Source: an uncultured Gemmatimonadales bacterium (lineage in GTDB: Bacteria; Gemmatimonadota; Gemmatimonadetes; Longimicrobiales; RSA9). From it: a stretch of DNA of 64,000 nt. Positions 14,304 to 37,470 of this stretch are shown here, one piece after another; positions within the stretch are counted from its first letter, which is position 1, and each line of letters begins with the position of its first letter. The stretch lies in NCBI GenBank assembly GCA_963783305.1, contig CAWAMW010000012.1:32973-96972 (forward strand), read 5' to 3'. The position numbers were made by a program, and so were the translations under genes. The notes below the pieces were generated by a model, which made no database searches, was not told the origin of the DNA, and saw only the letters and a list, made by a program, of their open reading frames with translations.

Positions 14304-15518
14304 GTGATCCTTTCGCAACACATCCGACTCGCGGCTCTGGCCGCGGTGGTGGGGCTCCTGCCGGCGATGCCGGCGACGGGGCAGTCGCTCACATCGATCC
14401 GTGGACTCGGCTATCCCATGATGGCCACGGATGCGCGCACCGAGGCGCTGGGCGGCCTCGGTCTCGGGTTGAAGGGGCTCTCATCGCCGCTGACGAATCC
14501 CGCGTCCGCGGCGGGTGTGCTGCGGCCTGGTGCCGTGGTGGCCGTGACGGCGGTGGAGCAGACCGCGGCCATTGGAGGCGAGGACGCCAGCTTCGGCGCG
14601 ACCCGTTTCCCGCTGATCCGTGCGTATTACCCCATGAATGGCGTGGTCCTGACCGCCGGGTACGGCGGCTACCTCGACCAGTCGTGGGGCGTGGAACGAA
14701 CGGGCGTGCAGGACGCCGGGGGAACCACGGTGGCGTTCCGGGACTTCGTGCGGTCGGTGGGCGGGATCGGGCAGTTCCAGCTGGGGGCGGCGGTGCCGAT
14801 CGGGGCCCGGCTGGCGCTGGGAGGCGCCGTAGGGGCGTACACCGGCGACCAGCGGCTCCAGTTCCAGCGGCTGTTCGACAGCACTTCTCTGGGTCCGCTG
14901 GAGCGATTCTCGGAGACCCGTACCGTGAAGTACTTCGCCCCGATGGCCCAGGTGGGGGTGCGCTGGGACCCCGCCCCGATGCTGCGTGTCGGAGCGAGCT
15001 TCACGTGGGCGGGCACGCTGAGCGCCGACTCGGCATCCGGACCCGCCGTGAGCCGGGAATACGACCTCCCACTTCAGGCGGCGGCGGGTGCGAGCGCGTA
15101 CCTGTCGCCGGGGCTGCTGGCGACCGTCTCCGGCCGGTGGAGCGGGTGGAGCTCCGTGGGCGGTGTCCCGGGGACGGCGCTGCAGGGCGGCGCTGTCGCA
15201 GCCGGGCATGACACGTGGGAGGTGGGCGGCGGGCTGGAGCTGGACAACCCGGCGAGCCGCGCGGTGCGGAGCTTCCCCATCCGCGTGGGCGCCCAGTACC
15301 GGCAGCTGCCGTTCACCTTCAGCAACGAGCTACCGACCGAATGGTTCATCGGCGGCGGGGTCGGCATGCGTATCGGCGCCACGCCAGAGAATCCGCTCGT
15401 GCGGGCGGACCTGACGGTGCAGCGGGGAGAGCGGACCGCTCTCATCGACGGTACCACCGACGAGCTTACCGAAAGCGCCTGGCGCTTCTCGCTCTCGCTG
15501 TCAGTGTTCGGAAATTGA
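14304..15518 (+). CDS. Putative outer-membrane beta-barrel protein (FadL/porin-like)
   Basis: Signal peptide ending MPATGQS, alternating Gly/aromatic strands, C-terminal ...LSLSVFGN. GTG start 7 nt after CAGGAG. Confidence 0.55.
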   Translation: MILSQHIRLAALAAVVGLLPAMPATGQSLTSIRGLGYPMMATDARTEALGGLGLGLKGLSSPLTNPASAAGVLRPGAVVAVTAVEQTAAIGGEDASFGATRFPLIRAYYPMNGVVLTAGYGGYLDQSWGVERTGVQDAGGTTVAFRDFVRSVGGIGQFQLGAAVPIGARLALGGAVGAYTGDQRLQFQRLFDSTSLGPLERFSETRTVKYFAPMAQVGVRWDPAPMLRVGASFTWAGTLSADSASGPAVSREYDLPLQAAAGASAYLSPGLLATVSGRWSGWSSVGGVPGTALQGGAVAAGHDTWEVGGGLELDNPASRAVRSFPIRVGAQYRQLPFTFSNELPTEWFIGGGVGMRIGATPENPLVRADLTVQRGERTALIDGTTDELTESAWRFSLSLSVFGN

Positions 15519-17060: not shown

Positions 17061-19433
17061 GTGCGGGCGCCGCTCGTCACGACCGTGGCGGTTTTCGCAG
17101 CCGGCATCGCGCTGGGCCTGCAGCGTCCCATCCCCACCGGGGGTGGGACGCTTTGCATCATGGCCGCGATGGCCGGGCTGGCAGCGCTCTGGCTCCTGGG
17201 TGCTCGGGCGACTCTGGTCGTGCTGCTGCTGGCCGGCGGCCTGCTCGGCACCGCGACCCGCACCGCCGCCTCGCGCTCCTGCGCCAGCTGGATCCCCGAC
17301 GACACGCCGCTGGAGGTTGTGGGGGTGGTGCGGCGGGTGGGGGCGCCGGGGGCCGCGGGAACCGATCGACTGCGCCTCCGGATCGACAGCGCGGGAGTGG
17401 CCGGCGGGCCGCGGGGCGCGCGGGGGGTGCCGCTGCTGGCGTGTGCGGCCGAGGTGCCGGCGCGGTGGGAGGGCGGAGTACAGGCGGGTTTGCGCGTGCG
17501 AGCGAGGGGGCGCTGGTGGAGCCCGCCCGGGTCCCGGTCGGGTTTGACCCGCCCGGGTACTCTCCTCCTGGACACGCTGGTCGTGTTGCCGGGAAGGGTG
17601 AAGCGGCGGCCCGGCGCAGTGCTCCGGGGGGCGGGGCTGGCGCGAATCGAAGCGGTGTTCCCGCGGCACGCCGCACTGGTGTCATCGCTGCTCCTGGCCC
17701 GGCGGGATGGGCTCGACAGGGAGGTGCGCGACCGGTATGCCCGTGCGGGCCTCAGCCATCTCCTGGCGATCTCGGGTCTTCACGTCGGCCTGGTCGCGGG
17801 GATCCTGCTGCTGGCGGCGCGGGCATTACGCATCGGGAGAGTGAGGGCGCCCGTCGTCGCGGCGGCGGGGACGGTGGCGTACGTGGCGCTGCTGGGAGCG
17901 CCCGATTCCGCCGCGCGGGCCGCGCTCCAGATCGTACTGGTACTCGCCGCCCGCGCGCTCCAGAGGCCCACGCGGACGGAGGCGCTCATCGCGGCCGCGG
18001 CGTTGGCGCTCCTGGCCATCGATCCCGGCGCGCTCGCCCGGCCGGGCTTTCAGCTGTCGTTCGCCGGCGTTGCGGGGATCCTGGCGCTGCGCCGCCCACT
18101 CCTCGCCCGGCTCGCCCCTCTGGCGAAGGCAGCGATCGGGGGCAGGGTGAGCGCCCGGCCGTTGGGGCGATGGCTCGCGGACGGCGTTGCCACCAGCGTG
18201 GCTGCGACGGTGGCGACCGCGCCGATCGTGGCGTGGCACTTCGGAAGGGTCGCGCCGGTGGGGGTGGTGGCCAACCTGATCGCGATCCCCCTGCTGACCG
18301 CCGCCGTGCCGGCGCTGGCGCTGGCGCTGGCGGCGGGCACACTGTGGCTCCCCGCGGGTCGGTTCCTCGCCGGTGGGGGAGAGCTGCTCCTGGACATGCT
18401 GGACCGCACCGCGGCCGTGGCCGCGGGGCTACCGTATGCGACGGTGGCGGTGGTGCCCGGGTCCGCCTTCGTGCTGACGGCGGCCGTGGCGGCCGGGTAT
18501 GCGGGATCGCGCCGTCTGGGCAGCGTGCGGCCCGCGGTGCGGGGGGTGGTGTGGGCATCGGCGGCGGCCGCGGTCCTGATGGTGGCGCCGCTGCGAGCCG
18601 CCGGGGACCGCGTGGAGATCCACCTCATAGACGTCGGGCAGGGCGACGCTATCGGGATCCGCTCGCCCGGCGGCCGCTGGGTGGTGGTGGACGCCGGTCT
18701 CGCACGAAACGACTACGACGCGGGCGAGACACGGGTGGTGCCGTATCTGCGCGCGAGAGGCGCGCATCGGATCGAGGGGCTGGTGGTGACGCACGCCGAC
18801 GCCGACCACATCGGCGGCGCGGGGGCGGTCCTGCGATCACTGCGCCCTCGGTGGGCGGGCGGACCGGCGGTGGTGGTGGGAAAGCCGCAGTACCTGGCGC
18901 TGCTGCATCAGGCCCGGTCGGCGTCGGTGCCGTGGGTCGCGGTGCGACAAGGAATGGAGCTGACGGTCGATGGCATGACCCTGAGCTTCCTCTTCCCGGG
19001 CGGCGGCGACGTGGACGTGGAGGACGCCAACGACGCGAGCGTGGTGCTGCGGGTCGCATACGGCGAGTTCGCGGCGCTGCTCACTGGGGACGCCCCGGCC
19101 CGCGTCGAGGTGGCACTGGTGGAGCGGCTCGGGACGGGGCTGGACGCAGACGTGCTGAAGGTGGGGCATCACGGGAGCAGCACGTCCACCACGCCCGCTC
19201 TGCTCACGGCGACCGGGGCGGGCACCGCGCTCATATCCGCGGGGCGCGGGAATCGCTATGGTCATCCGCACGCCGACGTGCTGGCACGACTCCAGCAACG
19301 GGGGGTTCGAGTGTACCGAACGGATCGGCACGGCACCGTGGTGGTGCGCGCGGGGGCCGATGGCGTGCTGCGGGTAGAGACGGAGCGCGTGTCGGGACCG
19401 GGGTCGGGAAGCGGACCGGGGTCTGGAAGCTGA
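17061..19433 (+). CDS. comEC: DNA internalization-related competence protein ComEC/Rec2
   Basis: Polytopic competence domain (LAISGLHVG) plus C-terminal metallo-beta-lactamase domain (VVTHADADHIGG, VLKVGHHGSS). Ends in a GPGSGS repeat. Confidence 0.85.
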   Translation: MRAPLVTTVAVFAAGIALGLQRPIPTGGGTLCIMAAMAGLAALWLLGARATLVVLLLAGGLLGTATRTAASRSCASWIPDDTPLEVVGVVRRVGAPGAAGTDRLRLRIDSAGVAGGPRGARGVPLLACAAEVPARWEGGVQAGLRVRARGRWWSPPGSRSGLTRPGTLLLDTLVVLPGRVKRRPGAVLRGAGLARIEAVFPRHAALVSSLLLARRDGLDREVRDRYARAGLSHLLAISGLHVGLVAGILLLAARALRIGRVRAPVVAAAGTVAYVALLGAPDSAARAALQIVLVLAARALQRPTRTEALIAAAALALLAIDPGALARPGFQLSFAGVAGILALRRPLLARLAPLAKAAIGGRVSARPLGRWLADGVATSVAATVATAPIVAWHFGRVAPVGVVANLIAIPLLTAAVPALALALAAGTLWLPAGRFLAGGGELLLDMLDRTAAVAAGLPYATVAVVPGSAFVLTAAVAAGYAGSRRLGSVRPAVRGVVWASAAAAVLMVAPLRAAGDRVEIHLIDVGQGDAIGIRSPGGRWVVVDAGLARNDYDAGETRVVPYLRARGAHRIEGLVVTHADADHIGGAGAVLRSLRPRWAGGPAVVVGKPQYLALLHQARSASVPWVAVRQGMELTVDGMTLSFLFPGGGDVDVEDANDASVVLRVAYGEFAALLTGDAPARVEVALVERLGTGLDADVLKVGHHGSSTSTTPALLTATGAGTALISAGRGNRYGHPHADVLARLQQRGVRVYRTDRHGTVVVRAGADGVLRVETERVSGPGSGSGPGSGS

Positions 19434-19446
19434 CGGGAGTCGTGGC

Positions 19447-19821
19447 ATGATCGGCATGATCAGTACGGCCGCTCGCCTGCTGGGCGGCGCGAAAGTGGAG
19501 ACGCCCCTGTCTCTCCCGAAGGGGGTGGAGGTACGCCGGGCGCGCCTGGTTCCGCGTGTTGCGGGCTGGCTGGCGGGAATGGATGGCCCCGCCGCGGCCG
19601 TCACGCTGGGTCGGGTGATCCTGGTGGGACCCACCGTGAGACCGAGCGAGCGGCTCCTGCGACACGAGCTGGCCCACGTCGCGCAGTGGGAGCGTCAGCC
19701 GCGCGCCTTTCCTTTCCGGTACATTGCTGCCCATATTCGGCAGGGATATCGGGATAACGCGTACGAGGCCGAGGCTCGGGCAGCCGAGAGCGGGCGAAGC
19801 GAATCGGGAGAAGGGGAATGA
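19447..19821 (+). CDS. Small HExxH protein resembling the DUF4157 zinc-metallopeptidase-like domain
   Basis: AAVTLGRVILVGPTV..SERLLRHELAHVAQWE. The stop overlaps the fbp ATG (ATGA). Confidence 0.55.
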   Translation: MIGMISTAARLLGGAKVETPLSLPKGVEVRRARLVPRVAGWLAGMDGPAAAVTLGRVILVGPTVRPSERLLRHELAHVAQWERQPRAFPFRYIAAHIRQGYRDNAYEAEARAAESGRSESGEGE

Positions 19822-20846
19822 CTTCACGATCCGTCATCACCATTGGCAGGCACATCATCGATCAGGAGCGACTGCATCCTGAGGCCACCGGCGCGCTGAG
19901 CGACATCCTGTACACCATGGCTCTCGCCGGGAAGCTCATCGCCCGGGAAGTGAGCAAGGCGGGCCTGGTGGACATCCTGGGGATGACCGGCGACACCAAC
20001 GTGCACGGCGAGGCGGTCAAGAAGCTCGACGAATTCGCCGATGATGTCATCTTTGCCGCGTTCGACCACACGGGGCTGCTCTGCTGCATGGCGTCGGAGG
20101 AGCACGAGGCGGTACGGGATATCCCGCAGAAGTTCCCCACCGGGAAGTACTCGCTGCTCTACGACCCGCTGGACGGATCGTCGAACATCGACGCGAACGT
20201 CTCCATCGGCACGATCTTCTCCGTCCACAACAAGGTCTCGGAAGTGGCGCGGGGGTGCGAGGAGGACTGCCTGCAGAAGGGGGAGAACCAGGTGGCCGCC
20301 GGCTACATCCTCTACGGCTCCTCCACCATGCTGGTGTATACCACCGGCAGCGGCGTGCACGGGTTCACGCTCGATCCGTCCATCGGGGAGTTCCTGCTGA
20401 GCCATCCCAACATCACCATCCCGAAGCCGGGCCGCCGGATCTACAGCGTGAACGAGAGCTACTACGCCGGCTGGTCCAGCGGGCAGAAGCGTCTCGTGGA
20501 TCACCTGAAGGCGCTGGACGGCGGGAACGGCGACGCGTTTTCCAGCCGCTACATCGGCTCCATGGTGGCGGACCTGCACCGGACCCTCCTGTACGGCGGA
20601 CTCTTCATGTACCCGGCCGACTCCGAGAGCCCCAAGGGGAAGCTCCGGCTCCTTTACGAGGGATCGCCGATGGCCATGATCGTGGAGCAGGCGGGGGGCC
20701 GGGCGACGGACGGCGAGCGCCGGCTCATGGAGATCGAGCCGACGAGCCTGCACCAGCGGACCCCGGTCTACATCGGGTCCACTGAGTACGTGGATCTGGC
20801 GGAGGAGTTCCTGTCGCAGGAAGAGGCGGTGGCGCCGGCGAGCTGA
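19818..20846 (+). CDS. fbp: Fructose-1,6-bisphosphatase class 1
   Basis: LLYDPLDGSSNIDANVSIGTIFS and GKLRLLYE motifs. Confidence 0.9.
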   Translation: MTSRSVITIGRHIIDQERLHPEATGALSDILYTMALAGKLIAREVSKAGLVDILGMTGDTNVHGEAVKKLDEFADDVIFAAFDHTGLLCCMASEEHEAVRDIPQKFPTGKYSLLYDPLDGSSNIDANVSIGTIFSVHNKVSEVARGCEEDCLQKGENQVAAGYILYGSSTMLVYTTGSGVHGFTLDPSIGEFLLSHPNITIPKPGRRIYSVNESYYAGWSSGQKRLVDHLKALDGGNGDAFSSRYIGSMVADLHRTLLYGGLFMYPADSESPKGKLRLLYEGSPMAMIVEQAGGRATDGERRLMEIEPTSLHQRTPVYIGSTEYVDLAEEFLSQEEAVAPAS

Positions 20847-20870: not shown

Positions 20871-22085
20871 TCAGCCTGCGGCCTGGCAGTCCTCTTCCGG
20901 GTTCCGCTCCGTCGTCACCCTGATGGTGCCGTTCGCGTCCACCCGAAGCTCGATATCGCCGTGGACGTTCGTACAGTACGTGCGGGTGTTGCTCCGGCTC
21001 ATGATCCTGGCCAGCGCGTTGTAGAGCGGGTGGGTCTCGCCGTTGGCGCTGATGAGCGCGACCTCGGGATCGGTGTGGTCCAGCCAGGAAGAGGCGCCGC
21101 TCGAGCCCACATCGAAGATGGCGTTGTTGGCCCCGTGGTGCCCCACCTTCAGCACGTCCACCTCCCCGGTCAGGGCGCTGAAGTCCTGGCGCCAGCGGCG
21201 GTTCGCCTCACGCTCCCCGTCCCCCGTCATGAACATGGAGAAGGCGTCCCGTGTCACGGCGGCGCCGAGGGAGCCCTCGTTCAGCTCGTGGCCGTCGGCG
21301 TTCGGATCGTTCAGGTAGCTGTCCAGGGGCGGCAGCAGTGTGATCACGGTTCCATCATCGCCGCTCAGCGGCACGGTCAGGAGGTTGGCGGGCACGATCA
21401 CGGTGTCCGCCCGTGCGTGCGCCTGATCGATGACACTTGTGTAGCCGCTGTAGTAGCGACTCTGCCCGTTGTAGATGAACCGCGCTACATCCAGCGACGC
21501 CAGCACGGCCGGCATCCCGTTGAAGTGATCGCTGTGGGCGTGGGTCAGCACCAGCGCTTCCAGGCTTTCGACCCCCAGCGCCTGCAGTCGCTGGGCGACG
21601 TGGTCGGGATCGCTACCATCGACGCCGGCGGGCCCCGCATCCACGAGAACGTGGCGCTGGAACCCCTCCGCCGAGTCGGTCAGAAGGATGGCGTCGCCGC
21701 CGCCCCCCGCGCTGTTGTCGCCGAGGTCGAACATGCGCACGATGAGAACGCCGCCCTCGGGGACCTCGATGCGAAAGCCGACGGTGCGGGACGAGGCGGC
21801 CTCGCCGACGCGCGCTTCCACGATGAGGGTGTGATCGCCGAGCTCGGCCACCGTGGAGCCGGATAGGAACGGGGTGCCGTCGAGGGTGGCGCTGTAGCTG
21901 CCCCGATCGACCTCGACCGAGACCATCACGGGTTCCGTGTACACGCCGCCCTCCTCGACCCCCGTAACGGAGATGGCCGGTGGGGTGGGCGGCTCGCTCG
22001 GGGAGCCCTCCGAGCAGCCGGCCAGCGCAACGCCGATGAGCAGCGCGACGGTTCGCCAGTCAGCCATGAATTTTGCCGGTCCCAT
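20871..22085 (-). CDS. Lipoprotein with Ig-like N-domain and ComEC-type metallo-beta-lactamase domain
   Basis: Lipobox ALAGC. LVLTHAHSDHFNG, VLKVGHHGANN and ALISANG...NVHGDIELRV parallel the ComEC C-terminal domain encoded at 18.6-19.4 kb. Alternative start at 22067. Confidence 0.7.
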   Translation of the reverse strand: MGPAKFMADWRTVALLIGVALAGCSEGSPSEPPTPPAISVTGVEEGGVYTEPVMVSVEVDRGSYSATLDGTPFLSGSTVAELGDHTLIVEARVGEAASSRTVGFRIEVPEGGVLIVRMFDLGDNSAGGGGDAILLTDSAEGFQRHVLVDAGPAGVDGSDPDHVAQRLQALGVESLEALVLTHAHSDHFNGMPAVLASLDVARFIYNGQSRYYSGYTSVIDQAHARADTVIVPANLLTVPLSGDDGTVITLLPPLDSYLNDPNADGHELNEGSLGAAVTRDAFSMFMTGDGEREANRRWRQDFSALTGEVDVLKVGHHGANNAIFDVGSSGASSWLDHTDPEVALISANGETHPLYNALARIMSRSNTRTYCTNVHGDIELRVDANGTIRVTTERNPEEDCQAAG

Positions 22086-22193
22086 TCAGCTACTCCTCTA
22101 CGATGCGCAAACGCCTGGTTCCCCGCACCTGCAGCGATACGGATCCCCCAGTGTAACGCCACTGGTGGAGGCGCGGCACCCATCCGCATGCGC

Positions 22194-22223
22194 TTGACTG
22201 TGGGCGAATGGAGCCAGTACAAT
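22194..22223 (+). promoter_or_regulatory. Candidate sigma70-type promoter for the lipoprotein/TonB-receptor operon
   Basis: TTGACT (22194-22199), 18-nt spacer, TACAAT (22218-22223). RBS AGGAG lies 5 nt before ATG 22314. Confidence 0.5.
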
Positions 22224-22313
22224 TCGGCCCGGCAAGCCGGTGGGCTCGTGCGCCCGGCAGCCGGAAACACCAAGGTGTCAGGCTACCACAACCAGCTCGT
22301 TCTAGGAGTCCCG

Positions 22314-24200
22314 ATGTCCCGGCGAATCTTGCGTCTGCTGCTGATTGCTGCAGCACTTCCCGCCCTCTCCGCCTGTGATGGCGATACCACGGGTCCCGAT
22401 GTCGGACCCTCCTCTCTCACCGTGCGCGCATACGTGGACGCGGACGGTAGCGGCACGTTCGACACGGGGGACACCCCCCTGGGCGGCGAGACGATCCTGC
22501 TGACGGGCCCCACCGGCAGCTCTGGGCCAATGGTCAGCCGCTCGGCCACGACAAGCGCGGAGGGTCTGGCCACGTTCGACGGTCTGGAGCCGGGCAGCTA
22601 CTCGCTGTCGTATGATGGGGATGTGCCGGCCGGCGCGACGCTGGCAGGACCCACCACACCCGTGGTGGTGGCGCAGACGGTCCAGCAGGCGCTCGAGACG
22701 GAGTTCCGGTTCGTGAGCTTCCCCGGCGGGATCGCCGGCGTGCTGTACCGCGACGAGAACGCCAACGGTGTGTTCGACGAGGGGGACACGCCGGCGCCGG
22801 GGATCCCGGTGGCGGTGTACGCCGGCGCGTCGGCGGAGGGCGAGCCGGTGGCCGAGACGACCACGAGCCCCGGGGGCGCCTACGAGTTCGACGGCCTGCG
22901 GCCCGGCACCTACACGGTGGTATTCTCGCCGTTCCCGACCATGGAGCTGGAGGGCGGAAGCTCGATGACGGTGACGGTGGGAGCGGACGCGGTATCCACA
23001 CCGTCGGTGGAGTTCACCGGCAACCTGCTGAGCCCGATCGCCGAGGCGCGGGCGCTGGCCGAAGCCGACGACAGCGTCGTGGTGGCGGTGGAGGGGACGG
23101 TGGCGTGGCAGCCCTCGTTCTCGGATGACCTGTTCATTCAGGACGAGACCGCCGGGATCCAGGTGTATGCCGCGGCCGCGGACGTGCGGGATCTCGGCCT
23201 GGTGCCGGGCGATCGTGTGATCGTGGTGGGCGAGGTGGACCTGCGGTTCGGTGAGCCCCAGATCACGAACGTGTCGGCGCTGATGGTGCAGGGGAGCGGG
23301 GACGCCCCCACTCCGGTGCCGACCACGGCCGAGTCGATCAACGCGGGCGCGGTCGGTCACCAGCTGGTGTCGGTGGAGGGCGCAACGGTAACTGCGGTGG
23401 AGGTCCTGCAGTACGGCAACCAGTTCGTCACCCTGACCAATGCCGCCGGCAACGAGTTCGGCGTGTATGCTGACAGCCGGACTGGCGTGGAGGCCGCGCT
23501 CTGGACGGTGGGCGGCGTGTACGACGTCACGGGCGTCGTCGGCTTCGACAGCCGATACGCGTACGCCAACCGGATCGAGGTCCGGGGCACCGAGGATGTG
23601 GTGCCGGGCGACCAACCGATCAGCATCGCCGAAGCGAAGGCCGCGGAGGCCGGTACAGAGGTGTCCATCGCGGGGACGGTGATCGCCCAGCCGTCGTTCG
23701 GGGACGAGCTGTTCATCCAGGACGCGACCGGCGGGATCCAGATCTACGCCCGCGATGGAGACGTCCGCACGCTTGGCCTGGAGCCGGGCGATGTGGTGCG
23801 CGTGACGGGCACCACGGAAGACCGGTTCGGTGAGCGCCAGCTCACGAGCGTAACGTACCTGGCGGTGATCGGCAGCGGGGCCGCTCCGACGCCGACCGTC
23901 GTGACGCCGGCGGAAATCGCGTCCGGTGACCAGGTCCACCAGCTCGTGACGGTGGAGGGCGCCACCGTGCTGGAGGTCGATACCAGCTGGAACACCTTCG
24001 GGAACCAGCTCGTGCGCCTGCGGGCCCCGAACGGCGAGGAGTTCGGCGTCTACGTGGACAGCCGGACCGGCGTGGAGGCGGACGCCTGGACGGTGGGCGC
24101 GGTTTACGACGTGACGGGCGTGATCAACTACGACAGCCGCTACGATCCCTTCAGCTACCGAATCTGGGTGAGAGGACCTGGCGATGTGGTGGCGAACTGA
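22314..24200 (+). CDS. Lipoprotein with two Ig-like beta-sandwich repeats and two tandem about 190-aa OB-like modules
   Basis: Lipobox ALSAC. DADGSGTFDTGD / DENANGVFDEGD repeats. Duplicated LFIQDxxGGIQ[VI]Y...PGDxVxVxG...RFGExQ[IL]T modules. Confidence 0.7.
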   Translation: MSRRILRLLLIAAALPALSACDGDTTGPDVGPSSLTVRAYVDADGSGTFDTGDTPLGGETILLTGPTGSSGPMVSRSATTSAEGLATFDGLEPGSYSLSYDGDVPAGATLAGPTTPVVVAQTVQQALETEFRFVSFPGGIAGVLYRDENANGVFDEGDTPAPGIPVAVYAGASAEGEPVAETTTSPGGAYEFDGLRPGTYTVVFSPFPTMELEGGSSMTVTVGADAVSTPSVEFTGNLLSPIAEARALAEADDSVVVAVEGTVAWQPSFSDDLFIQDETAGIQVYAAAADVRDLGLVPGDRVIVVGEVDLRFGEPQITNVSALMVQGSGDAPTPVPTTAESINAGAVGHQLVSVEGATVTAVEVLQYGNQFVTLTNAAGNEFGVYADSRTGVEAALWTVGGVYDVTGVVGFDSRYAYANRIEVRGTEDVVPGDQPISIAEAKAAEAGTEVSIAGTVIAQPSFGDELFIQDATGGIQIYARDGDVRTLGLEPGDVVRVTGTTEDRFGERQLTSVTYLAVIGSGAAPTPTVVTPAEIASGDQVHQLVTVEGATVLEVDTSWNTFGNQLVRLRAPNGEEFGVYVDSRTGVEADAWTVGAVYDVTGVINYDSRYDPFSYRIWVRGPGDVVAN

Positions 24201-24222
24201 GGCACGAACCCAAGGCGTGGTG

Positions 24223-25266
24223 ATGAAGCATATGAACGATCAGATGAGTGGTCGCGTCCGGCGTTGGGCGGTGGCCCTGGCCGCCGTGAGCGTGCTGGCC
24301 GCGTGCGATGACGACGTGGCGCCCCCGACGGCCATCGAGGGGACGGGCTCGGTGGAGGGCCTGCTCTTCTACGACGCGAACCGGGATGGGCTGTTCGACC
24401 CCTCGGCGGGGGACGAGGCGCTGCCGGGCGTTCAGCTGGTCCTGCGGCAGCGCGGGACCGAGGACGTGCTCGCGGGGGGCACGGCGGTCACGGGAGACGA
24501 CGGCCGGTTCTCCATGACCGGCGTGCCGCTGGGGACGCACGAGCTTTTCGTGAACGAGAGCACGGCTCCCGAGTTCGCAACCTTCTGTAGGAACCCCATC
24601 CCGGTTTCCGTCTATCGCAACGAGACGCAGTTCGAGGATGTGGACGCGCGTCAGAGCTGCCTGGTCACGATCGCCGTGGCCGAGGAGCAGCCGCTGGGCG
24701 AATACGTGACGGTCTCGGGGATCGTGGTCTCCGGGTCAGGCATGATCCGGCCGGGGTACATCCACATCGAGGACGAGTCGGGCGGCGTGCGGCTGTTCGA
24801 CTACGCGCTGGACGACCTGGGCCTGGAGGTAGGGGACCGGCTCGAGGCCTCGGGGACGCTCGCGGCGTACGGCGGCGACTTCCAGATCACGGGGATCACG
24901 GTGAACGCGGTGGAAGAGGACGCGGCGGACCCGCAGCCGACGCTGGTGACGACGGCCGAGATCTCGGAGGCGGGGCTGGATGGCAAGGACCCACTGCTGG
25001 GTCGGCTGGTGAAGGTGGAGGGAGCCGAGCTGGTGAGTGAGTTCGGCGCGGACGGCATGCACTATCGCAACGCCCTGATCGACACGGGTGAGGGCGCGAC
25101 GATCGTCCGTCTGGAGGAAGCGGTGGGCGCCGGCACTCCCGAGATCGAGGCGCTGATGACGGTGGGCAGCTGCTACGACATAACGGGCGTGACGGGGACG
25201 TTCAGCCAGGAAGGGCAGATCTTCCCGCGCACGCCGGCTGACATCGTGGAGGTCGCATGTCCGTAA
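24223..25266 (+). CDS. Lipoprotein with one Ig-like repeat and one OB-like module (paralogous to the upstream gene)
   Basis: Lipobox VLAAC. DANRDGLFDPSAGD. YIHIEDESGGVRLF...VGDRLEASGTLAAYGGDFQIT. Confidence 0.65.
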   Translation: MKHMNDQMSGRVRRWAVALAAVSVLAACDDDVAPPTAIEGTGSVEGLLFYDANRDGLFDPSAGDEALPGVQLVLRQRGTEDVLAGGTAVTGDDGRFSMTGVPLGTHELFVNESTAPEFATFCRNPIPVSVYRNETQFEDVDARQSCLVTIAVAEEQPLGEYVTVSGIVVSGSGMIRPGYIHIEDESGGVRLFDYALDDLGLEVGDRLEASGTLAAYGGDFQITGITVNAVEEDAADPQPTLVTTAEISEAGLDGKDPLLGRLVKVEGAELVSEFGADGMHYRNALIDTGEGATIVRLEEAVGAGTPEIEALMTVGSCYDITGVTGTFSQEGQIFPRTPADIVEVACP

Positions 25267-25301
25267 AGGGTGATGGAGCTCGTACATCTCTGGAAGGTTC
25301 A

Positions 25302-28300
25302 ATGATGCACTTCAGATATATGGCCAGGTCGCTGGCACGAATGGCCGTTGCGGCGGCCGCGCTGCTGCTGGCGCCCATGGCGCTGCAGGCGCAGAACGCC
25401 ACTACCAACGGTCAGATCCGGGGCACGGTGGCCGGCCCGGCGGGGCAGCCGGTGCAGGGCGTGGCGTTGACCGCGGTCAACGAGGGCACCGGCCTCACCC
25501 GCAGCACGCTGACGGGCGAGAACGGTCGATACATGCTCCACCTGCTGCCGCCGGGGAGCTACACGGTCCGGGCGGAGATGATCGGATACCGCACGGACGA
25601 GGTGCCGGGCGTACAGGTGGCGATCGGCCAGACCTCCACGGTGAACGTGAACCTGGAGGAGGAGGCCGTGGGTCTCGAGGGGATCCGGGTCCTGGTGGAC
25701 CGTGAGCGGATCGATGTCTCGGATGCCTCCGTGGTGGACCTGGTCTCGCGGCAGCAGATCGAGGAGCTGCCGGCGCTGGGTCGCGACTTCACCGACTTCA
25801 TCAACCTGAGCGGACTCGTGGCGCCGGACCCGGGCGAGACGACCGGGGGACAGTTCTCGATCGGGGGTCAGCGCGCGTCGCAGACGAACCTGCAGATCGA
25901 CGGCGTGGACGCGAACAACGCCTTCTTCGGTGAGAACCGGGGCGGATCGCGGATCCCGTTCGTCTTTTCGCTGGAGTCCATCGAGGAGTTCCAGGTCATC
26001 ACGAACGGGTACGACGTGGAGTACGGCAATTACTCCGGCGGGATCGTGAACGTGGTGACTCGGGGCGGTACGAACGAGCTGCACGGGAACGTGTACGGCA
26101 ACTACCGCAGCGATGCGCTCACCGGCCGGGGGTTCCTGGCGGGCGAGCAGGTGGAGGAGTACAGCGTCGGCCAGTTCGCCGGCCGGCTCTCCGGCCCGAT
26201 CATGGAGGACAAGGCGTTCTTCTCGATCTCGTTCGACGGTCAGCGCCGGCGCGAGCCGCAGCTGCCGCTCACGGTGGCGCAGTACACGACGGGCGAGGAC
26301 GCGGAGCCGGGCATCGCGGCGGAGGTGGAGGACTTCTTCCAGATCCTGGAGAACCAGTACGGGATCCAGAACCCGGCCTCGGGCTTCGAGCCGTTCCAGA
26401 CGACGAACGACGTGCTGTCGATCTTCGGCCGCATCGACTGGAACATCACGCCGGACCACCGGCTCTCGGTCCGGCACAACTACGCGAACTACAAGAACGA
26501 CCGCGAGTTCTCGCCCGGCTACGACTACTACTACGGCTCGTCGCGATCGGAGAACCTCTCGGACCTGTCGAACTCGTTCGTTACGGAGCTCCAGTCGATC
26601 CTGGGCACGAACACGTTCAACGTGTTTCGCTTCCAGTACGCCACGGAGGAGCGTCCGCGCCAGGGGAGTGAGCTCCGGCCGGCGCTGATCACGCGGCTGT
26701 CGAACGGCGACCTCATCGGGTACGGCGGGACGTTTGTGGCGTTCCACAACAACCTCAACGAGCGGAAGCTGCAGTTCATCGACAACTTTACGCACATTGT
26801 CGGGGACCACAGCCTGAAAGTGGGCTTCAACGGCCTGCTGACCACGGCGGAAAACTGGTTCCTGCCGCCGTTCACCGCTCCGTGCGGGCGTGGCAGCCAG
26901 GGCGCGGGCGTATTCTGCTTCGACGACCTGGAGGCGCTGGCCGCGGGCACACCGTCCTCGTACGTCTTCAACGTCAATCAGGGCGAGGACCTGGTGCCGT
27001 ACAGCGAGGTGCAGGTCAGCGAGATCGGCGTGTACGTGCAGGACGAGTGGCAGGTGTCGCCGAAGCTCACGGCCACGCTCGGTCTGCGGCACGACCGCCA
27101 GGACTTCCGCGATGACCCGGAGCGGGTCATCGACGTGGAGCGCGCCTTCGGCTACCCGACGGGTACGGCGCCGCAGGACAACAACAACATCTCGCCCCGG
27201 CTCAACCTCGCCTACGACGTGTATGGCGACGGTCGGTCGGTGGTGCGCGCGGGCGCCGGCTACTTCTTCGGCCGCGTGCCGTACGTGCTGGCGGGCAACG
27301 TGGAGGGGAGTCAGCGGCCGGTCTACACGCTGAACTGCTCGGGCTCCGTGAGCGAGGGCGACCCGGACGCGCCGCCCACGCCGCTGAACTACGGCGACTG
27401 GTCGAATCAGGGCTACGACAATCCGACCGCGTGCCGGAGCGGGTCGTCGCTGAGTGGTGTTCCCACGTACGCGGTGTGGAACCCGGACTTCGAGTATCCC
27501 GAGACGTTCAAGGCGAACGCGGGGTTCGAGACGATGCTGGGCGACCGGACGCGCCTGTCGACCGACCTGATCTTCTCGCAGAGCACCAAGCTGTACACGG
27601 TGCGGAACCTCAACCTGCGGGGTGTGCAGTTCCAGCTGGAGAGCGAGGGCGGCCGGCGCGTGTTCTCGCCGCGGGCGACGTTCAGCCCTTCGGGGGGCAA
27701 TACGGAATCGGCGCGACTGTACACGGATCTGGGCGATGTGTACGTCAACTACAACGACGGGCGCGCCCGGTCGATGGTGGGCACGCTCGAGCTGAGCCAC
27801 AAGCTGGCGGAGAACACGACGTTGCGCGGGTCGTACACGCTCACCCGCTCGCAGGACAACTCGTCCTACTCGTGCTGCACGGCCAACGCGGGCTACACCA
27901 GCCCGAACGTGGGGCTTTACGGCCCCAACGAGATCGGCGGGATCGGCGATGATGACAAGTCGTGGGGGACCAGCGACTTCGAGCGCCGTCATACGTTCAT
28001 TCTCTCCGGCCAGACGGAGCTGCCGTACGGCTTCAAGGTGAGCGGGATCTGGCGGGTCCAGAGCGGCCGTCCGTTCACGCCGGAAGTGGGCGGTGACCTG
28101 AACGGTGACGGCGTGTCGTACAACGACCGCCCGTTCATCTTCTCGCCGGATGCGCTGCCGCTGCCGGCGGGGTCGGAGGACCAGCGGGAGCTGTATCGGA
28201 ATCTGCTGGCAGACAACGATTGCATCGGCGACTACGAGGGCCAGATCGTGCCTCGCAACACCTGTCGGACGCCGTGGTCGAACATGCTGGACATGCGGCT

Positions 28301-28610
28301 GACGAAGGAGTTCCCGACGCTCGAGGGTCAGCGGGCTGAGCTGCAGGTGGATCTGTTCAACGTGCTGAACGGTGTGAGCCAGATCTTCTGCAGCGACGAC
28401 GAGTTCGCGGAAGACCCGACCGGCGGCGTGTGCGGCCTGGGTCGTTTCACGAGCGTGAGCGGCTCATCGAGGAACATCTTCAGGCCGGCCGGATTCGCTG
28501 ATGACGCGGTCACCTACACGGTGTCCGACAGCTTCGGCCGTGAGGGTGTCGTCGGCTCCAACCTCCTGCTCCAGTTCCAGGCGCAGATCGGGTTCAAGTA
28601 CTACTTCTAA
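25302..28610 (+). CDS. TonB-dependent outer-membrane transporter, Oar-like (CarboxypepD_reg N-domain + plug + barrel)
   Basis: Signal peptide ...MALQAQ. GQIRGTV...GENGRYMLHLLPPGSYTV. Plug region FSIGGQRASQTNLQIDGVD. 1102 aa with terminal ...IGFKYYF. Confidence 0.85.
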   Translation: MMHFRYMARSLARMAVAAAALLLAPMALQAQNATTNGQIRGTVAGPAGQPVQGVALTAVNEGTGLTRSTLTGENGRYMLHLLPPGSYTVRAEMIGYRTDEVPGVQVAIGQTSTVNVNLEEEAVGLEGIRVLVDRERIDVSDASVVDLVSRQQIEELPALGRDFTDFINLSGLVAPDPGETTGGQFSIGGQRASQTNLQIDGVDANNAFFGENRGGSRIPFVFSLESIEEFQVITNGYDVEYGNYSGGIVNVVTRGGTNELHGNVYGNYRSDALTGRGFLAGEQVEEYSVGQFAGRLSGPIMEDKAFFSISFDGQRRREPQLPLTVAQYTTGEDAEPGIAAEVEDFFQILENQYGIQNPASGFEPFQTTNDVLSIFGRIDWNITPDHRLSVRHNYANYKNDREFSPGYDYYYGSSRSENLSDLSNSFVTELQSILGTNTFNVFRFQYATEERPRQGSELRPALITRLSNGDLIGYGGTFVAFHNNLNERKLQFIDNFTHIVGDHSLKVGFNGLLTTAENWFLPPFTAPCGRGSQGAGVFCFDDLEALAAGTPSSYVFNVNQGEDLVPYSEVQVSEIGVYVQDEWQVSPKLTATLGLRHDRQDFRDDPERVIDVERAFGYPTGTAPQDNNNISPRLNLAYDVYGDGRSVVRAGAGYFFGRVPYVLAGNVEGSQRPVYTLNCSGSVSEGDPDAPPTPLNYGDWSNQGYDNPTACRSGSSLSGVPTYAVWNPDFEYPETFKANAGFETMLGDRTRLSTDLIFSQSTKLYTVRNLNLRGVQFQLESEGGRRVFSPRATFSPSGGNTESARLYTDLGDVYVNYNDGRARSMVGTLELSHKLAENTTLRGSYTLTRSQDNSSYSCCTANAGYTSPNVGLYGPNEIGGIGDDDKSWGTSDFERRHTFILSGQTELPYGFKVSGIWRVQSGRPFTPEVGGDLNGDGVSYNDRPFIFSPDALPLPAGSEDQRELYRNLLADNDCIGDYEGQIVPRNTCRTPWSNMLDMRLTKEFPTLEGQRAELQVDLFNVLNGVSQIFCSDDEFAEDPTGGVCGLGRFTSVSGSSRNIFRPAGFADDAVTYTVSDSFGREGVVGSNLLLQFQAQIGFKYYF

Positions 28611-28853: not shown

Positions 28854-29933
28854 CTACGCCAGGCGAGTGGCTCCCGCGTCGGCATCCTCCGCCCGGTACC
28901 TGGCGGACAGGGCGCGGATGCGCTCGGACATCTCCGCCACCAGCGCCTGCTTCTCCTTGTGCGGGAGGAACGCGCTCTCGAATCCGTAGAGGGAGATGCG
29001 GGTGAGCTCCTCCCAGGTGAAGTCCAGGTGCTGATGAGCGCGCCAGTACTCCTCCGTCACGGTGGTGGCGCTCATGAGGCGGTTGTCGGTGTTGAGGGTC
29101 ACCACGAGGCCCTCGTCGTAGTAGAGTCGGACCGGGTGCTCATCCAGGCTCTCCACGGCCCGGGTCTGGACGTTCGATGTCATGCAGATCTCGATGGGGA
29201 TCCGGAAATTGTTCACGTAGTCCATGAGGTCCGGGTCCTCGAAGAGCCGGGTCCCGTGGCCGATCCGGTTGGCGTTGCAGTAGTGCAGCGCCTGGTGGAT
29301 CGATTCCGGGCCGTACGCCTCACCCGCGTGAATCGTGGCCGCGATGTTGGCGTTCCCCACGCGGTAGAACGCCTCCCTGTGCATCTTGGCGGGGTTATTG
29401 TACTCCGCGCCCGCCAGGTCGAAGGCGAGGACCCCATCGTTCTTGAACTGGACGGTGAGGTCGGCCAGGTCCATGGAGGTGTGTGGGCTCATGTTCCTGA
29501 TGCCGCAGATGATGATCCCGGTCCGGATGTCGTACTGCTCCTCGGCGCGGCGCAGGCCGCGGAGCGGAGCGGCGACGGCCTCTTCGAGCGTGAGGCCACC
29601 CTGGACGTTGAGGACGGGGGAGAACCGGACCTCCATGTAGCGCACGTTCTCCGCGGCCGCGTCTTCGGCCATCTCGAACGCGATCCTCTCCAGCGACTCG
29701 GCGTCCTGCATGACGCTGAGGGTGATGTCGAAGCGCGAGAGGTAGTCTACGAGGTCTCGTGCTTCCTGGACATGCATGTAGTCCGCGAGCGCCTCGGGAT
29801 CCCGGGTGGGGAGGGTCGTGCCACGCTCGTCGGCGAGCTCGATCAGTGTTACCGGCCGGACCGACCCGTCGAGGTGGACGTGGAGGTCTGTCTTCGGCAA
29901 CCCGTGCAGACGTTCCCGTGTTACGCGTACCAT
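28854..29933 (-). CDS. add: Adenosine deaminase
   Basis: LPKTDLHVHLDGS, HAGE and TLNTDN motifs. ATG 29933; the ORF-track extension to 30122 overlaps ppdK. Confidence 0.85.
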   Translation of the reverse strand: MVRVTRERLHGLPKTDLHVHLDGSVRPVTLIELADERGTTLPTRDPEALADYMHVQEARDLVDYLSRFDITLSVMQDAESLERIAFEMAEDAAAENVRYMEVRFSPVLNVQGGLTLEEAVAAPLRGLRRAEEQYDIRTGIIICGIRNMSPHTSMDLADLTVQFKNDGVLAFDLAGAEYNNPAKMHREAFYRVGNANIAATIHAGEAYGPESIHQALHYCNANRIGHGTRLFEDPDLMDYVNNFRIPIEICMTSNVQTRAVESLDEHPVRLYYDEGLVVTLNTDNRLMSATTVTEEYWRAHQHLDFTWEELTRISLYGFESAFLPHKEKQALVAEMSERIRALSARYRAEDADAGATRLA

Positions 29934-32736: not shown

Positions 32737-34126
32737 TCAGCAGCTGCTGGCGGGGGAGAATCCGCGATCGAGGTCCACGAGCGGCGCGTCGTAGGCCCCG
32801 GAGAAGCAGGCATGGCAGAACTCACCATCGCCGCTGTCGGACGCGGCTGTGATCATGCCCTCCAGCGAGAGGTATCCGAGGCTGTCCACGTCGAGGTGCT
32901 GGCGGATCTCCTCGACGGTCTTCTGTGAGCCGATCAGCTCCTCCTTCGTGGGCATGTCAATGCCGTAGAAGCAGGGAAAACGCACGGGGGGGCTGGAGAT
33001 GCGGAAATGCACCTCCGTGGCTCCCGCCTCCCGGACCAATCGAACGATACCCCTGCTGGTGGTGCCGCGGACGAGGGAGTCATCGACTACCACGACCCGC
33101 TTGCCGGCCAGGACCTCACGAACCGCGTTGTACTTGATCCGTACGCGGAAGTCGCGGCCGGTCTGCGTGGGGTGAATGAAGGTGCGGCCGACGTAGTGGT
33201 TCCGGATGAGGCCGAGCTCGTAGGGGATACCGCTCTGCTCAGCGAACCCGAGTGCCGCGGAGTTCGAGGAGTCGGGAACACTGAAGACCACGTCCGCGTC
33301 CGCCGGGTGCTCCTCCGCGAGCCTGCGGCCGAACGCACGGCGAGCCCGATCGACGCTTTGGCCCCAGATCTTGGAGTCGGGCCGCGCGAAGTAGACCAGC
33401 TCGAAGACGCAGGGGGCGGTGCGGTGGTTCCGTGAGACGTTCTTGAGCGATCGCAGGTCGTCGCCGCGGATGCGCAGCATCTCGCCGGGCTCGATGTCGC
33501 GCTCGTAGCTGGCTCCCACCAGGTCGAGGGCGCAGCTTTCGCTCGCCACGATCCAGCCGCCGTCCGGCAGCCTGCCCAGAATCAGGGGCCGGTAGCCCCA
33601 GGGATCGCGGGCGGCGTACATGGTGTCGCCCACGGTGATGATCACGCTGAACGCGCCCTTGAGGCGCGAGAGCGCTTCGGAGATCTGCTCGTCCACGGTG
33701 GGCGAGCGGGACCGGCTGATGAGAATGGACGATGACCTCGCTGTCGATAGTACCCTGGAAGAGCGCTCCCTCCTCGACCAGCTCCTCGCGCAGCGTGAGC
33801 GCGTTCGTGATGTTGCCGTTGTGCACCAGCCCCAGGTCGCCCTCGCGGTAGTTCACCACGATGGGCTGCGCGTTGACCAGGCCCGCGCCCCCGGCCGTGG
33901 AATACCGGGTGTGCCCCAACGCCATCCGACCCGGGAGCGAGTCGAGCGCCCGGTCGTCGAACCCTTCGGCCACCAGCCCCTCCCGTCGGCTCAGCCGGGT
34001 CTGCCCCGTTTCGTCCACCGCCGAGATGCCGGAAGACTCCTGGCCCCTGTGCTGGAGGGCGTACAGCCCGAGGAACGCCAGCTTGGCGGCGTCCTCCACT
34101 CCGGTTACTCCTACGATCCCGCACAT
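32737..34126 (-). pseudogene. purF: Amidophosphoribosyltransferase PurF, reading frame broken by an apparent 1-nt insertion near 33724
   Basis: The N-terminal frame (MCGIVG...IDSEVIVH) and the C-terminal frame (LISRSRSPTVDEQISEA...VVVVDDSLVRGTT...) are in different frames. They join cleanly if one base of the plus-strand AA at 33724-33725 is removed. Confidence 0.8.
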
Positions 34127-34154
34127 ACCGCCACTCCTTCAGTACTCCTGTACA

Positions 34155-36451: not shown

Positions 36452-36455
<4 letters not shown>
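34155..36455 (-). CDS. purL: Phosphoribosylformylglycinamidine synthase subunit PurL
   Basis: 766 aa with duplicated AIR-synthase-like domains ([16 protein letters not shown]). ATGA overlap with purQ. Confidence 0.9.
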
Positions 36456-37194
<739 letters not shown>

Positions 37195-37195
<1 letters not shown>

Positions 37196-37449
37196 CAGCC
37201 GGCCTCCAGCGCGATGGCGTAGTCCTCCGTGACGGGATTCGCCAGCAGCTTGCGGCACATGTCGTCCGCGCGGGCGCGGGCGGCCTGCTCGTCGGCGGCC
37301 TCGAGCCGGAGCCGCACCAGCCGGCCGACATGGACACCCTTCACATCCTGGAACTCCAGGGAGTGGAGGGCGTGCTCGACGGCCTTGCCTTCGGGGTCCA
37401 GAAGCCCCTCCCGGGGCGTGATGCGCACTTCGATTCGGTATGGCTTCAT
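37195..37449 (-). CDS. purS: Phosphoribosylformylglycinamidine synthase subunit PurS
   Basis: 84 aa: [21 protein letters not shown]...ANPVTEDY. Confidence 0.85.
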
Positions 37450-37470
37450 CTTCCTGGGGTGTGCGGGTTC

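Follow-up and report, generated by a model that had tools for sequence, protein, structure and literature searches.

A candidate TonB-dependent nucleic-acid acquisition locus of Gemmatimonadota with tandem-OB lipoproteins and a ComEC-type metallo-beta-lactamase lipoprotein

In the genome of an uncultured Gemmatimonadales bacterium, placed in Longimicrobiales (Gemmatimonadota) by GTDB, a metallo-beta-lactamase (MBL) lipoprotein, two lipoproteins with predicted oligonucleotide/oligosaccharide-binding (OB) folds and a TonB-dependent transporter are encoded side by side, which leads to the question what these four proteins handle together. The window analysed is a stretch of 64,000 nucleotides (assembly GCA_963783305.1, contig CAWAMW010000012.1) with a G+C content of about 70%, and gene order was derived from gene calling guided by the G+C content at third codon positions, and from translation. 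The MBL lipoprotein gene (20871-22085, minus strand, 404 residues as called, Pfam Lactamase_B and Lactamase_B_2) is separated by a divergent intergenic region of 228 bp from the gene for a long OB lipoprotein (22314-24200, plus strand, 628 residues, two repeat modules), which is followed by the genes for a short OB lipoprotein (24223-25266, plus strand, 347 residues, one module) and for the transporter (25302-28610, plus strand, 1102 residues). An initial annotation, made from the sequence alone, had proposed that these proteins bind, cut and import extracellular nucleic acid, and the coordinates it gave for all three parts of the locus were reproduced. The locus is probably a Gemmatimonadota TonB-dependent system for the acquisition of extracellular nucleic acid that works like the Ddb locus of Bacteroidales.

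The MBL lipoprotein consists of a signal peptide with a lipobox (LAGC, in ..VALAGC), an N-terminal Ig-like beta domain at about residues 35-110 and a ComEC-type MBL domain at about residues 112-400; the downstream ATG at 22067 is a possible alternative start. In BLASTP it is 33% identical over 273 residues to the C terminus of the ComEC encoded in the same window (E 1e-21), far beyond chance, and the motifs by which the initial annotation had drawn this parallel occur in both proteins. Motifs II (HAHSDH), III (Asn269), IV (Asp289) and V (GHHG) are present, and the residues H182, H184, D186, H187, N269, D289, H316, and H317 are invariant across 40 homologues. When the profile of this 40-sequence family was searched against the whole Protein Data Bank (PDB) at E<=0.01, three ComEC MBL domains were retrieved, then three Pce/CbpE entries, and nothing else. 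The AlphaFold2 (AF2) model of the lipoprotein (pLDDT 89) was matched best by Foldseek to the MBL domain of Moorella ComEC (PDB ID: 9ic4, E 5e-17, TM-score 0.81) and next to Pce. The closest sequence and fold relatives are the MBL domains of ComEC (PDB IDs: 9ic4, 9vc6, 30bt) and pneumococcal Pce/CbpE. By these relatives and the retained ligand motifs II-V, the domain belongs to the ComEC/Pce branch of the MBL superfamily. Both clustering with ComEC-type MBLs and preserved metal ligands, which had been proposed as a test of the prediction, were found.

The MBL domain of ComEC is a demonstrated Mn-dependent nuclease/phosphodiesterase, in which an Asp replaces one motif II His (HxDxDH) and an Asn stands at motif III (PMC8579336). 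According to the alignment, the MBL lipoprotein shares the motif III Asn with ComEC and retains the bridging Asp and the GHHG motif, whereas its motif II is of the canonical, Pce-like form HxHxDH. This combination of a Pce-like motif II with a ComEC-like Asn marks it as a distinct clade of the ComEC/Pce branch and not a recent copy of ComEC. The protein also differs from ComEC in being free-standing and in carrying the additional Ig-like domain. Its best NCBIfam match is the C-terminal part of ComEC_Rec2 (TIGR00361, positions 449-648) with 48.4 bits at a cut-off of 190, which places it outside the ComEC/Rec2 family, and neither Pfam nor NCBIfam detected a Competence channel domain (PF03772); it is therefore not a ComEC. 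It is regarded as a candidate nuclease/phosphodiesterase. At least 482 database entries belong to the family, those with names coming from Gemmatimonadota, and about one-third of the source-named entries among the matches listed are labelled ComEC or competence protein, for example "ComEC/Rec2 family competence protein". Because the shared MBL domain is the sole basis for it, such naming of channel-less MBL lipoproteins is an over-annotation.

The long OB lipoprotein, whose true start is the ATG at 22314 behind AGGAG and not position 22188, carries a lipobox (LSAC, followed by DGD), two Ig-like stalk domains of the calcium-binding type (SdrD_B/CarboxypepD_reg), and two tandem-OB modules of the DUF5689 type. 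In Pfam it matches SdrD_B (E 8e-20), DUF5689 (45.9 bits), BOF, and the tRNA_anti-codon OB family. The short OB lipoprotein has a lipobox (LAAC, followed by DDD), one Ig-like stalk and one tandem-OB module with a weaker DUF5689/OB match; four cysteine residues invariant in an alignment of 12 orthologues would fit an extracytoplasmic location of this protein. All three modules are encoded on the plus strand: module 1 with the motif FIQDETAGI (23022-23609, 23.9 bits, positions 41-217 of the DUF5689 profile), module 2, whose structure was predicted (23610-24197, 32.4 bits alone, positions 19-217), and module 3 in the short lipoprotein (24655-25254, 22.1 bits, positions 21-217). The 217-position profile of DUF5689 (PF18942) has a gathering score of 28.6 bits, which is passed by the long lipoprotein and by module 2 alone, and modules 1 and 3 lie just below it with near-full profile coverage. 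The presence of three copies in the two lipoproteins, as initially described, is borne out by an alignment over about 196 residues, in which identity to module 1 is 57% for module 2 and 34% for module 3.

The relationship to DUF5689 is further supported by a comparison of the module family with a 258-bit DUF5689 protein from a locus encoding an EEP nuclease and a TonB transporter (hhalign probability 99.5%, E 3e-23, 204 columns). In addition, the long lipoprotein matches the N-terminal region of the ExeM/NucH model in NCBIfam (NF033681, positions 12-108 of 546, 44.3 bits, E 1e-11), and the likeness to the OB fold of secreted nucleases that had been suspected from the sequence is supported. ExeM/NucH and YhcR-type nucleases (NF033681; Shewanella ExeM, PMC6085458) share the same N-terminal OB module. 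In contrast to these nucleases, the OB lipoproteins lack a catalytic EEP domain, with no Exo_endo_phos match in Pfam and 44 bits against a cut-off of 300, so they fall outside the ExeM/NucH family; binder and enzyme are here encoded by separate genes, the binder being a lipoprotein.

An AF2 model of the module, based on an alignment of 20 sequences, shows two beta-barrel halves (pLDDT 94.2, pTM 0.89). Nearly all of its first 50 Foldseek matches in the PDB are nucleic-acid binders. They include the HIN-200 proteins p204, p202, IFI16, AIM2, and MNDA, many of them in complex with dsDNA (among them PDB ID: 4JBM), the telomere-end proteins TEBP-alpha, POT1, and Teb1, and the tandem-OB single-stranded DNA-binding proteins (SSBs) of Thermus and Deinococcus. 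Departing from this pattern are YgiW, matched by one half only, and a lysyl-tRNA synthetase. E-values range from 1e-6 to 5e-4, and identity to HIN-200 proteins is 5-13%. The likeness to HIN-200 is one of fold only, as no PDB entry was matched by sequence, and the modules are not members of that family. Based on the model and the profile matches, the modules are confidently predicted to be tandem OB folds of the DUF5689 family, and OB folds with nucleic-acid-binding structural neighbours are what the initial annotation had expected to see.

A search for homologues with a single module as query gave nothing, owing to the sensitivity of the word index, whereas an alignment of 33 sequences gave matches. 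An exhaustive profile search yielded 26,677 representative clusters (50% identity) at E<=0.001 and 15,222 at E<=1e-10, usually with two to seven module copies per protein. Among 39 sampled strong relatives, the domains found beside the module were type IX secretion system (T9SS) tails in 17, a lamin-tail domain (LTD) in 11, PLD-like (PLDc_2) in six, SNase in two, and 5'-nucleotidase, Metallophos, EEP, and a carbohydrate-binding module (CBM) in one each; glycosidase or peptidase families were absent from these 39. More distant relatives combine LTD, the module, an EEP nuclease, and a cell-wall anchor (Bacillota) or LTD, DUF5689, and PLD (Ignavibacteria). The fusion partners of the module elsewhere are thus mainly nucleic-acid or phosphoester hydrolases, which supports a nucleic-acid substrate. 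One or several copies are also found N-terminal, in a presumably periplasmic region, in PAS/HisKA/HATPase histidine kinases of Salinivenus, Verrucomicrobiota, and Terriglobia (L007:6520-8526, L010:9839-13348, L019:9875-11761; loci outside the window are denoted by L numbers). These kinases might sense the same ligand, possibly extracellular DNA.

The transporter gene starts 35 nt past the short lipoprotein gene, and its product contains a signal peptide, CarboxypepD_reg (E 1e-22), Plug (E 3e-7), and an OMP_b-brl_4 barrel (E 2e-72) in Pfam. Its domain content is that of an Oar-type transporter, so that gap, length and class agree with the initial description. Sequence relatives of the transporter were absent from the PDB, and it is 48-59% identical to the transporter of every related locus. 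Neither SusC/RagA nor SusD families were among the Pfam and NCBIfam matches at the locus, where the partner lipoproteins are Ig-like plus tandem-OB proteins. A generic SusC/D-like locus whose domains resemble OB folds only superficially, which had been kept as the sober alternative, is rejected on the strength of the fold, the homology, and the fusion partners. In another public assembly that covers this region (L042; ENA ERZ25039549 contig_85779), the transporter gene is in several called fragments (L042:3468-6783), with the N-terminal 400 codons 64% identical at the protein level to the window. The breaks look like local frameshift errors of that assembly, and the gene is intact in the window.

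Whether the four genes form a unit was assessed from related loci. The full core, that is the MBL lipoprotein gene divergent from the genes for the long OB lipoprotein, the short OB lipoprotein, and the transporter, was found at 11 loci besides the window's own region, in Longimicrobiales, Gemmatimonadales, and metagenomes, in keeping with the expectation that the neighbourhood would be conserved beyond this genome. A module-anchored scan with one genome per species gave the OB-OB-transporter block in two metagenome-assembled genomes (MAGs) of Longimicrobiales and one of Gemmatimonadaceae, and a further copy (L039) was reached through a homologue of the short lipoprotein. In an OB-anchored metagenome scan, all four loci with enough upstream sequence (L048, L051, L053, L055) carry the divergent MBL gene. 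Conversely, all six MBL-lipoprotein entries that were looked up have the divergent OB-long, OB-short, and transporter operon, one of the six being the window's own protein (L042). The core is intact with unrelated flanks in L002, L043-L048, L051, L053, and L055; the exception is L043, the nearest relative (Longimicrobiales), which shares ComEC/FBPase and adenosine deaminase/PPDK with the window. The flanks of L044 (Gemmatimonadales), L045, L046, and L047 are entirely different from those of the window. Since the core stays intact amid differing flanks, the unit is conserved independently of its surroundings. Long-lipoprotein orthologues carry one to four modules. The gene for the short OB lipoprotein adjoins the transporter gene in all related loci, as in the window, and its position directly upstream makes the short lipoprotein the likely partner of the transporter.

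The enzyme accompanying the block differs in some relatives. L006 has an amino-acid permease gene upstream and no MBL gene, and Endonuclease I is encoded just downstream of its transporter gene. L039 also carries Endonuclease I (Endonuclease_1), and its upstream side ends at the contig end. In L046, an Endonuclease_NS gene is added beside the MBL gene. The long lipoproteins of L039 (191-2113) and L006 (9176-11203) have a single OB module each, and that of L039 also has an LTD, which is typically found together with extracellular nucleases. As judged from the encoded proteins, the enzyme slot of the unit is filled by proven DNase types in some relatives, and these classical secreted nucleases beside the OB-OB-transporter block support the nucleic-acid reading.

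The closest described counterpart is the ddbABCDEF locus of Bacteroides thetaiotaomicron, without which exogenous DNA is not depleted and deaminated nucleobases are not produced (Sharan et al., bioRxiv and PNAS 2025, PMC12478041). The locus encodes the nucleases DdbA, DdbB, and DdbF, the transporter DdbC, which is TonB-dependent, the DUF5689 lipoprotein DdbD (WP_048698952.1), and DdbE; a DdbC-DdbD complex was modelled, DdbD was likened to the p202 HIN domain (PDB ID: 4JBM), and the family was anchored on BLASTP matches of DdbC (WP_008762511.1) within Bacteroidota, to which the work is confined (PMC12478041). In both systems, the gene for a DUF5689-type tandem-OB lipoprotein adjoins that for a TonB-dependent transporter, a secreted nuclease (Ddb) or nuclease candidate (here) is encoded in the same locus, the models of the module and of DdbD both resemble p202 HIN, and the layout of binder, cutter, and gate is like that of a polysaccharide utilization locus (PUL). 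The present locus differs in belonging to Gemmatimonadota and not to Bacteroidales, in having two binder genes, which lie upstream of the transporter gene, and in binders with Ig-like stalks and one to four modules. Its nuclease candidate is a ComEC-type MBL lipoprotein, whereas sampled Ddb-like loci have an EEP nuclease, and Endonuclease I or Endonuclease NS occurs elsewhere. As a proxy for the Ddb comparison, L040 was used, a Ddb-like metagenomic locus with an EEP nuclease and two DUF5689 genes. Its transporter, standing in for DdbC, matches only Plug in Pfam, whereas the transporter of the window is of Oar type; with an E-value of 0.037, the two have no significant BLASTP similarity, so their pairing with a DUF5689 lipoprotein may be convergent.

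Domain identities, folds, homologies, and the conserved gene linkage are observed, whereas we infer that the proteins bind DNA and have nuclease activity, in which direction and with what cargo transport proceeds, and that the lipoproteins lie at the surface. In the proposed mechanism, the two OB lipoproteins, with their modules held out on calcium-binding-type Ig-like stalks, would serve at the cell envelope to capture extracellular DNA or RNA. The short lipoprotein would probably dock on the transporter, as DdbD has been modelled to dock on DdbC. The polymer would be cut by the divergently transcribed ComEC-type MBL lipoprotein, and the fragments would be imported into the periplasm through the Oar-type TonB-dependent transporter. 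The most likely purpose would be nutrition, that is the supply of phosphorus, nitrogen, and carbon and the salvage of nucleobases. The initial reading of binding, cutting, and import is therefore the best supported one: the modules model as OB folds with nucleic-acid-binding neighbours, the MBL domain groups with ComEC and keeps its ligands, and the neighbourhood recurs in other genomes, while each step of the mechanism is to be taken as conditional.

The same parts could also serve pilus-independent DNA uptake across the outer membrane for natural transformation, delivering DNA to the periplasm for ComEC as proposed for Riemerella. In Riemerella anatipestifer, RA0C_RS04915 (a carboxypeptidase-regulatory-like barrel) and RA0C_RS04920 (DUF5689) are both essential for natural transformation, and comEC (RA0C_RS04895) lies four locus tags away from the pair (PMC8459023). 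DdbC and DdbD are described as homologous to RA0C_RS04915 and RA0C_RS04920. With ddbABCDEF in Bacteroidales and the Riemerella pair both described, the statement of the initial annotation that no system of this composition was known is out of date; in the literature on Gemmatimonadota or Longimicrobia, no relevant paper on loci with a nuclease and a TonB transporter was found. The Riemerella pair resembles the present locus in combining a DUF5689 protein with a barrel protein of the outer membrane whose N-terminal domain is CarboxypepD_reg-like, and in the presence of comEC a few genes away. The MBL lipoprotein gene lies 1437 nt from the end of the ComEC gene, with FBPase and a small open reading frame (ORF) between them, which confirms the 1.4 kb noted initially and recurs in L043. 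The candidate for the nuclease is, moreover, paralogous to the nuclease domain of ComEC.

This closeness to comEC does not hold as a trait of the locus, however. It is found only in the window (L042) and L043 and is lost from the flanks of L002 and L044-L047 despite their intact four-gene core, and comEC is therefore not part of the conserved unit. The Riemerella pair has a transformation phenotype, whereas the ComEC linkage is not conserved across the relatives studied here. No other competence gene (comEA, dprA, comF, pilQ) is present in the 64-kb window, where the surroundings consist of housekeeping genes, and in relatives the degradative enzyme beside the block, Endonuclease I or NS, points to catabolism. 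To our knowledge, competence is unreported for Gemmatimonadota, which also counts against a role in transformation. Such a role is considered unlikely, and nutrition is favoured over it in view of the unconserved linkage to ComEC and the degradative endonucleases of relatives. A bolder form, in which the tandem-OB lipoproteins would act as DNA ratchets and together with a detached ComEC-type nuclease and a TonB gate provide a long-DNA route for natural transformation, is unlikely. If true, the Riemerella-type mechanism would be old and widely distributed as an alternative to uptake by type IV pili in the Fibrobacteres-Chlorobi-Bacteroidetes (FCB)-Gemmatimonadota lineage.

Several observations weigh against nucleic-acid acquisition as the function of the locus. 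The Foldseek TM-scores of the two-domain module are moderate, only about 0.45. The modules are extremely acidic, with a net charge of about -16 to -26 per 196-200 residues and a pI of about 4.05, and they are in this respect unlike HIN domains, which bind the DNA backbone electrostatically. OB folds are also not exclusive to nucleic acids, since they can bind oligosaccharides too. The MBL domain is related to Pce, a phosphorylcholine esterase, so that its substrate could be a non-nucleic phosphodiester. Even for the model system, DNA binding by DdbD was argued by the authors from structural similarity, in the passages cited (PMC12478041), and the transporter of the window is without detectable similarity to that of the Ddb-like L040.

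The locus could instead take up a non-nucleic nutrient (another phosphodiester polymer, a glycan, or a peptide), with the OB modules binding an oligosaccharide or other ligand and the MBL lipoprotein acting as a Pce-like phosphodiesterase or other hydrolase. Pce/CbpE as the next-closest solved relatives and the Pce-like motif II would suit this explanation, as would the acidity of the modules, the wider ligand range of OB folds, and the membership of the transporter in the Oar type, which has numerous paralogues with mostly unknown cargo. It is opposed by the homology of the module to DUF5689 and to the N terminus of ExeM/NucH, by fusion partners that are mainly nucleases or phosphoesterases plus LTD, and by the bona fide DNases linked to the block in three related loci; furthermore, no glycoside hydrolase, SusD-like protein, or peptidase adjoins the block in the loci with annotated flanks. 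A non-nucleic substrate is considered quite unlikely. Regarding charge, nuclease-fused and Ddb-like relatives of the module are acidic too, although less so (pI 4.5-5.4), and the modules may bind nucleic acid with the help of cations or through base stacking. All computed proteins of the window have a pI below 7, with values of 4.05 in the OB lipoproteins, 4.5 in the MBL lipoprotein, 4.6 in the transporter, and about 5.0 in two cytoplasmic enzymes; the strongly acidic envelope proteins may indicate a saline habitat.

The location of the lipoproteins bears on whether the locus is an importer at all. In the OB lipoproteins and their orthologues, Asp and then more acidic residues mostly come after the lipid-modified Cys (CDGD, CDDD, CDEA and similar), whereas in the MBL lipoproteins and their orthologues this Cys is mostly followed by Ser or Gly and then a Gly/Ser/Pro linker; in the window, these signals are encoded at 22374-22385 and 24304-24315 (OB) and at 22014-22025 (MBL). 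The acidic residues resemble the surface-export signal C(x/xx)(D/E)(D/E) of Bacteroidota, as quoted in the Ddb literature. A further point against the proposed function is that, by the rules known from E. coli, Asp at position +2 would mean retention in the inner membrane. OB and MBL lipoproteins probably go to different places, and the signals suggest the surface or the inner membrane for the OB lipoproteins and the periplasmic face of the outer membrane for the MBL lipoprotein.

Inner-membrane retention would suit an explanation without import, in which the Oar-type transporter functions in export or surface display, or the OB lipoproteins are YgiW-like periplasmic stress proteins and the gene linkage reflects envelope maintenance. 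Oar of Myxococcus reportedly functions in secretion of PopC. One half of the module also resembles YgiW (PDB ID: 1nnx, TM-score 0.80 to the target), and the BOF and stress_OB_fold profiles match as well; this resemblance likewise counts against nucleic-acid binding. On the other hand, conservation extends to the whole two-domain module and not just to one OB half, and its DUF5689 match spans the full length, the nuclease linkage argues for a catabolic role, and the Plug domain of the transporter is intact, as in importers. A locus that imports nothing is highly improbable, and TonB-dependent acquisition of extracellular nucleic acid is retained as the preferred reading.

How the divergent genes are expressed was addressed in the intergenic region. 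A sigma-70-like promoter candidate, TTGACT-N18-TACAAT, with 10 of 12 matches lies at 22194-22223 on the plus strand and precedes the ATG at 22314 by 91 nt. It is the sole sigma-70-like site in the 10.9 kb scanned, where 0.9 sites are expected by chance, and the count is therefore not significant by itself; terminator and promoter scans altogether gave counts not above chance. TTGAC(G/A)-N17 elements occur at similar positions in L043 and L046, so that a TTGAC(N) -35-like element recurs in three of the six divergent intergenic regions compared, and no common operator was seen by eye in these six. It is plausible, though not proven, that the element acts as a promoter. The site in front of the OB lipoprotein genes is thus present as initially described, and as a count it is no better than chance.

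Outside the conserved unit, the ComEC gene (17061-19433, plus strand; Competence channel and MBL domain by Pfam and NCBIfam) is followed by the small ORF (19447-19821, plus strand, 124 residues), which has an eCIS_core (DUF4157-like) match (E 2.5e-6) and is called as a gene in L042 too, and by the FBPase gene (19818-20846, plus strand). Upstream of a MiaB-like gene and comEC, two ORFs of 428 and 404 residues (13013-14299 and 14304-15518, plus strand) have no Pfam match, and they keep their position in L043 (400 and 426 residues). On the other side, the gene for a cytoplasmic adenosine deaminase (28854-29933, minus strand; A_deaminase E 2e-97; likely start M64) is convergent with the transporter gene, and beyond it lie PPDK and then purine-biosynthesis genes. 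This purine cluster (32737-41433) comprises a PurF-like ORF, then PurL, PurC, and PurB. The PurF-like ORF (32737-33696, minus strand) matches only the tail of the GATase_7 profile, with its residues 3-57, and Pribosyltran; probably its called start is too far downstream or the gene is split. Adenosine deaminase, PPDK, and the purine genes beside the locus are suggestive of nucleoside catabolism or salvage, and this link is not conserved. ComEC, adenosine deaminase, and PPDK are ruled out as members of the unit, since their adjacency recurs only in L043.

If the proposed function is true, DNA acquisition by DUF5689 proteins with TonB transporters, described for Bacteroidales in 2025, extends from Bacteroidota to a poorly studied soil and marine phylum. 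What is new here is the other phylum, an apparently different class of transporter, and a ComEC-type MBL protein as nuclease candidate. The system would be modular, a DNA-binding-type lipoprotein apparently being combinable with another transporter class and with nucleases that can replace one another (ComEC-type MBL, Endonuclease I, Endonuclease NS). The finding would provide a testable function for the MBL-lipoprotein family of at least 482 entries and for the large extracellular module family of about 26,700 clusters. As extracellular DNA is a major pool of phosphorus and nitrogen in soils and sediments, it matters ecologically which abundant uncultured lineages can take up DNA.

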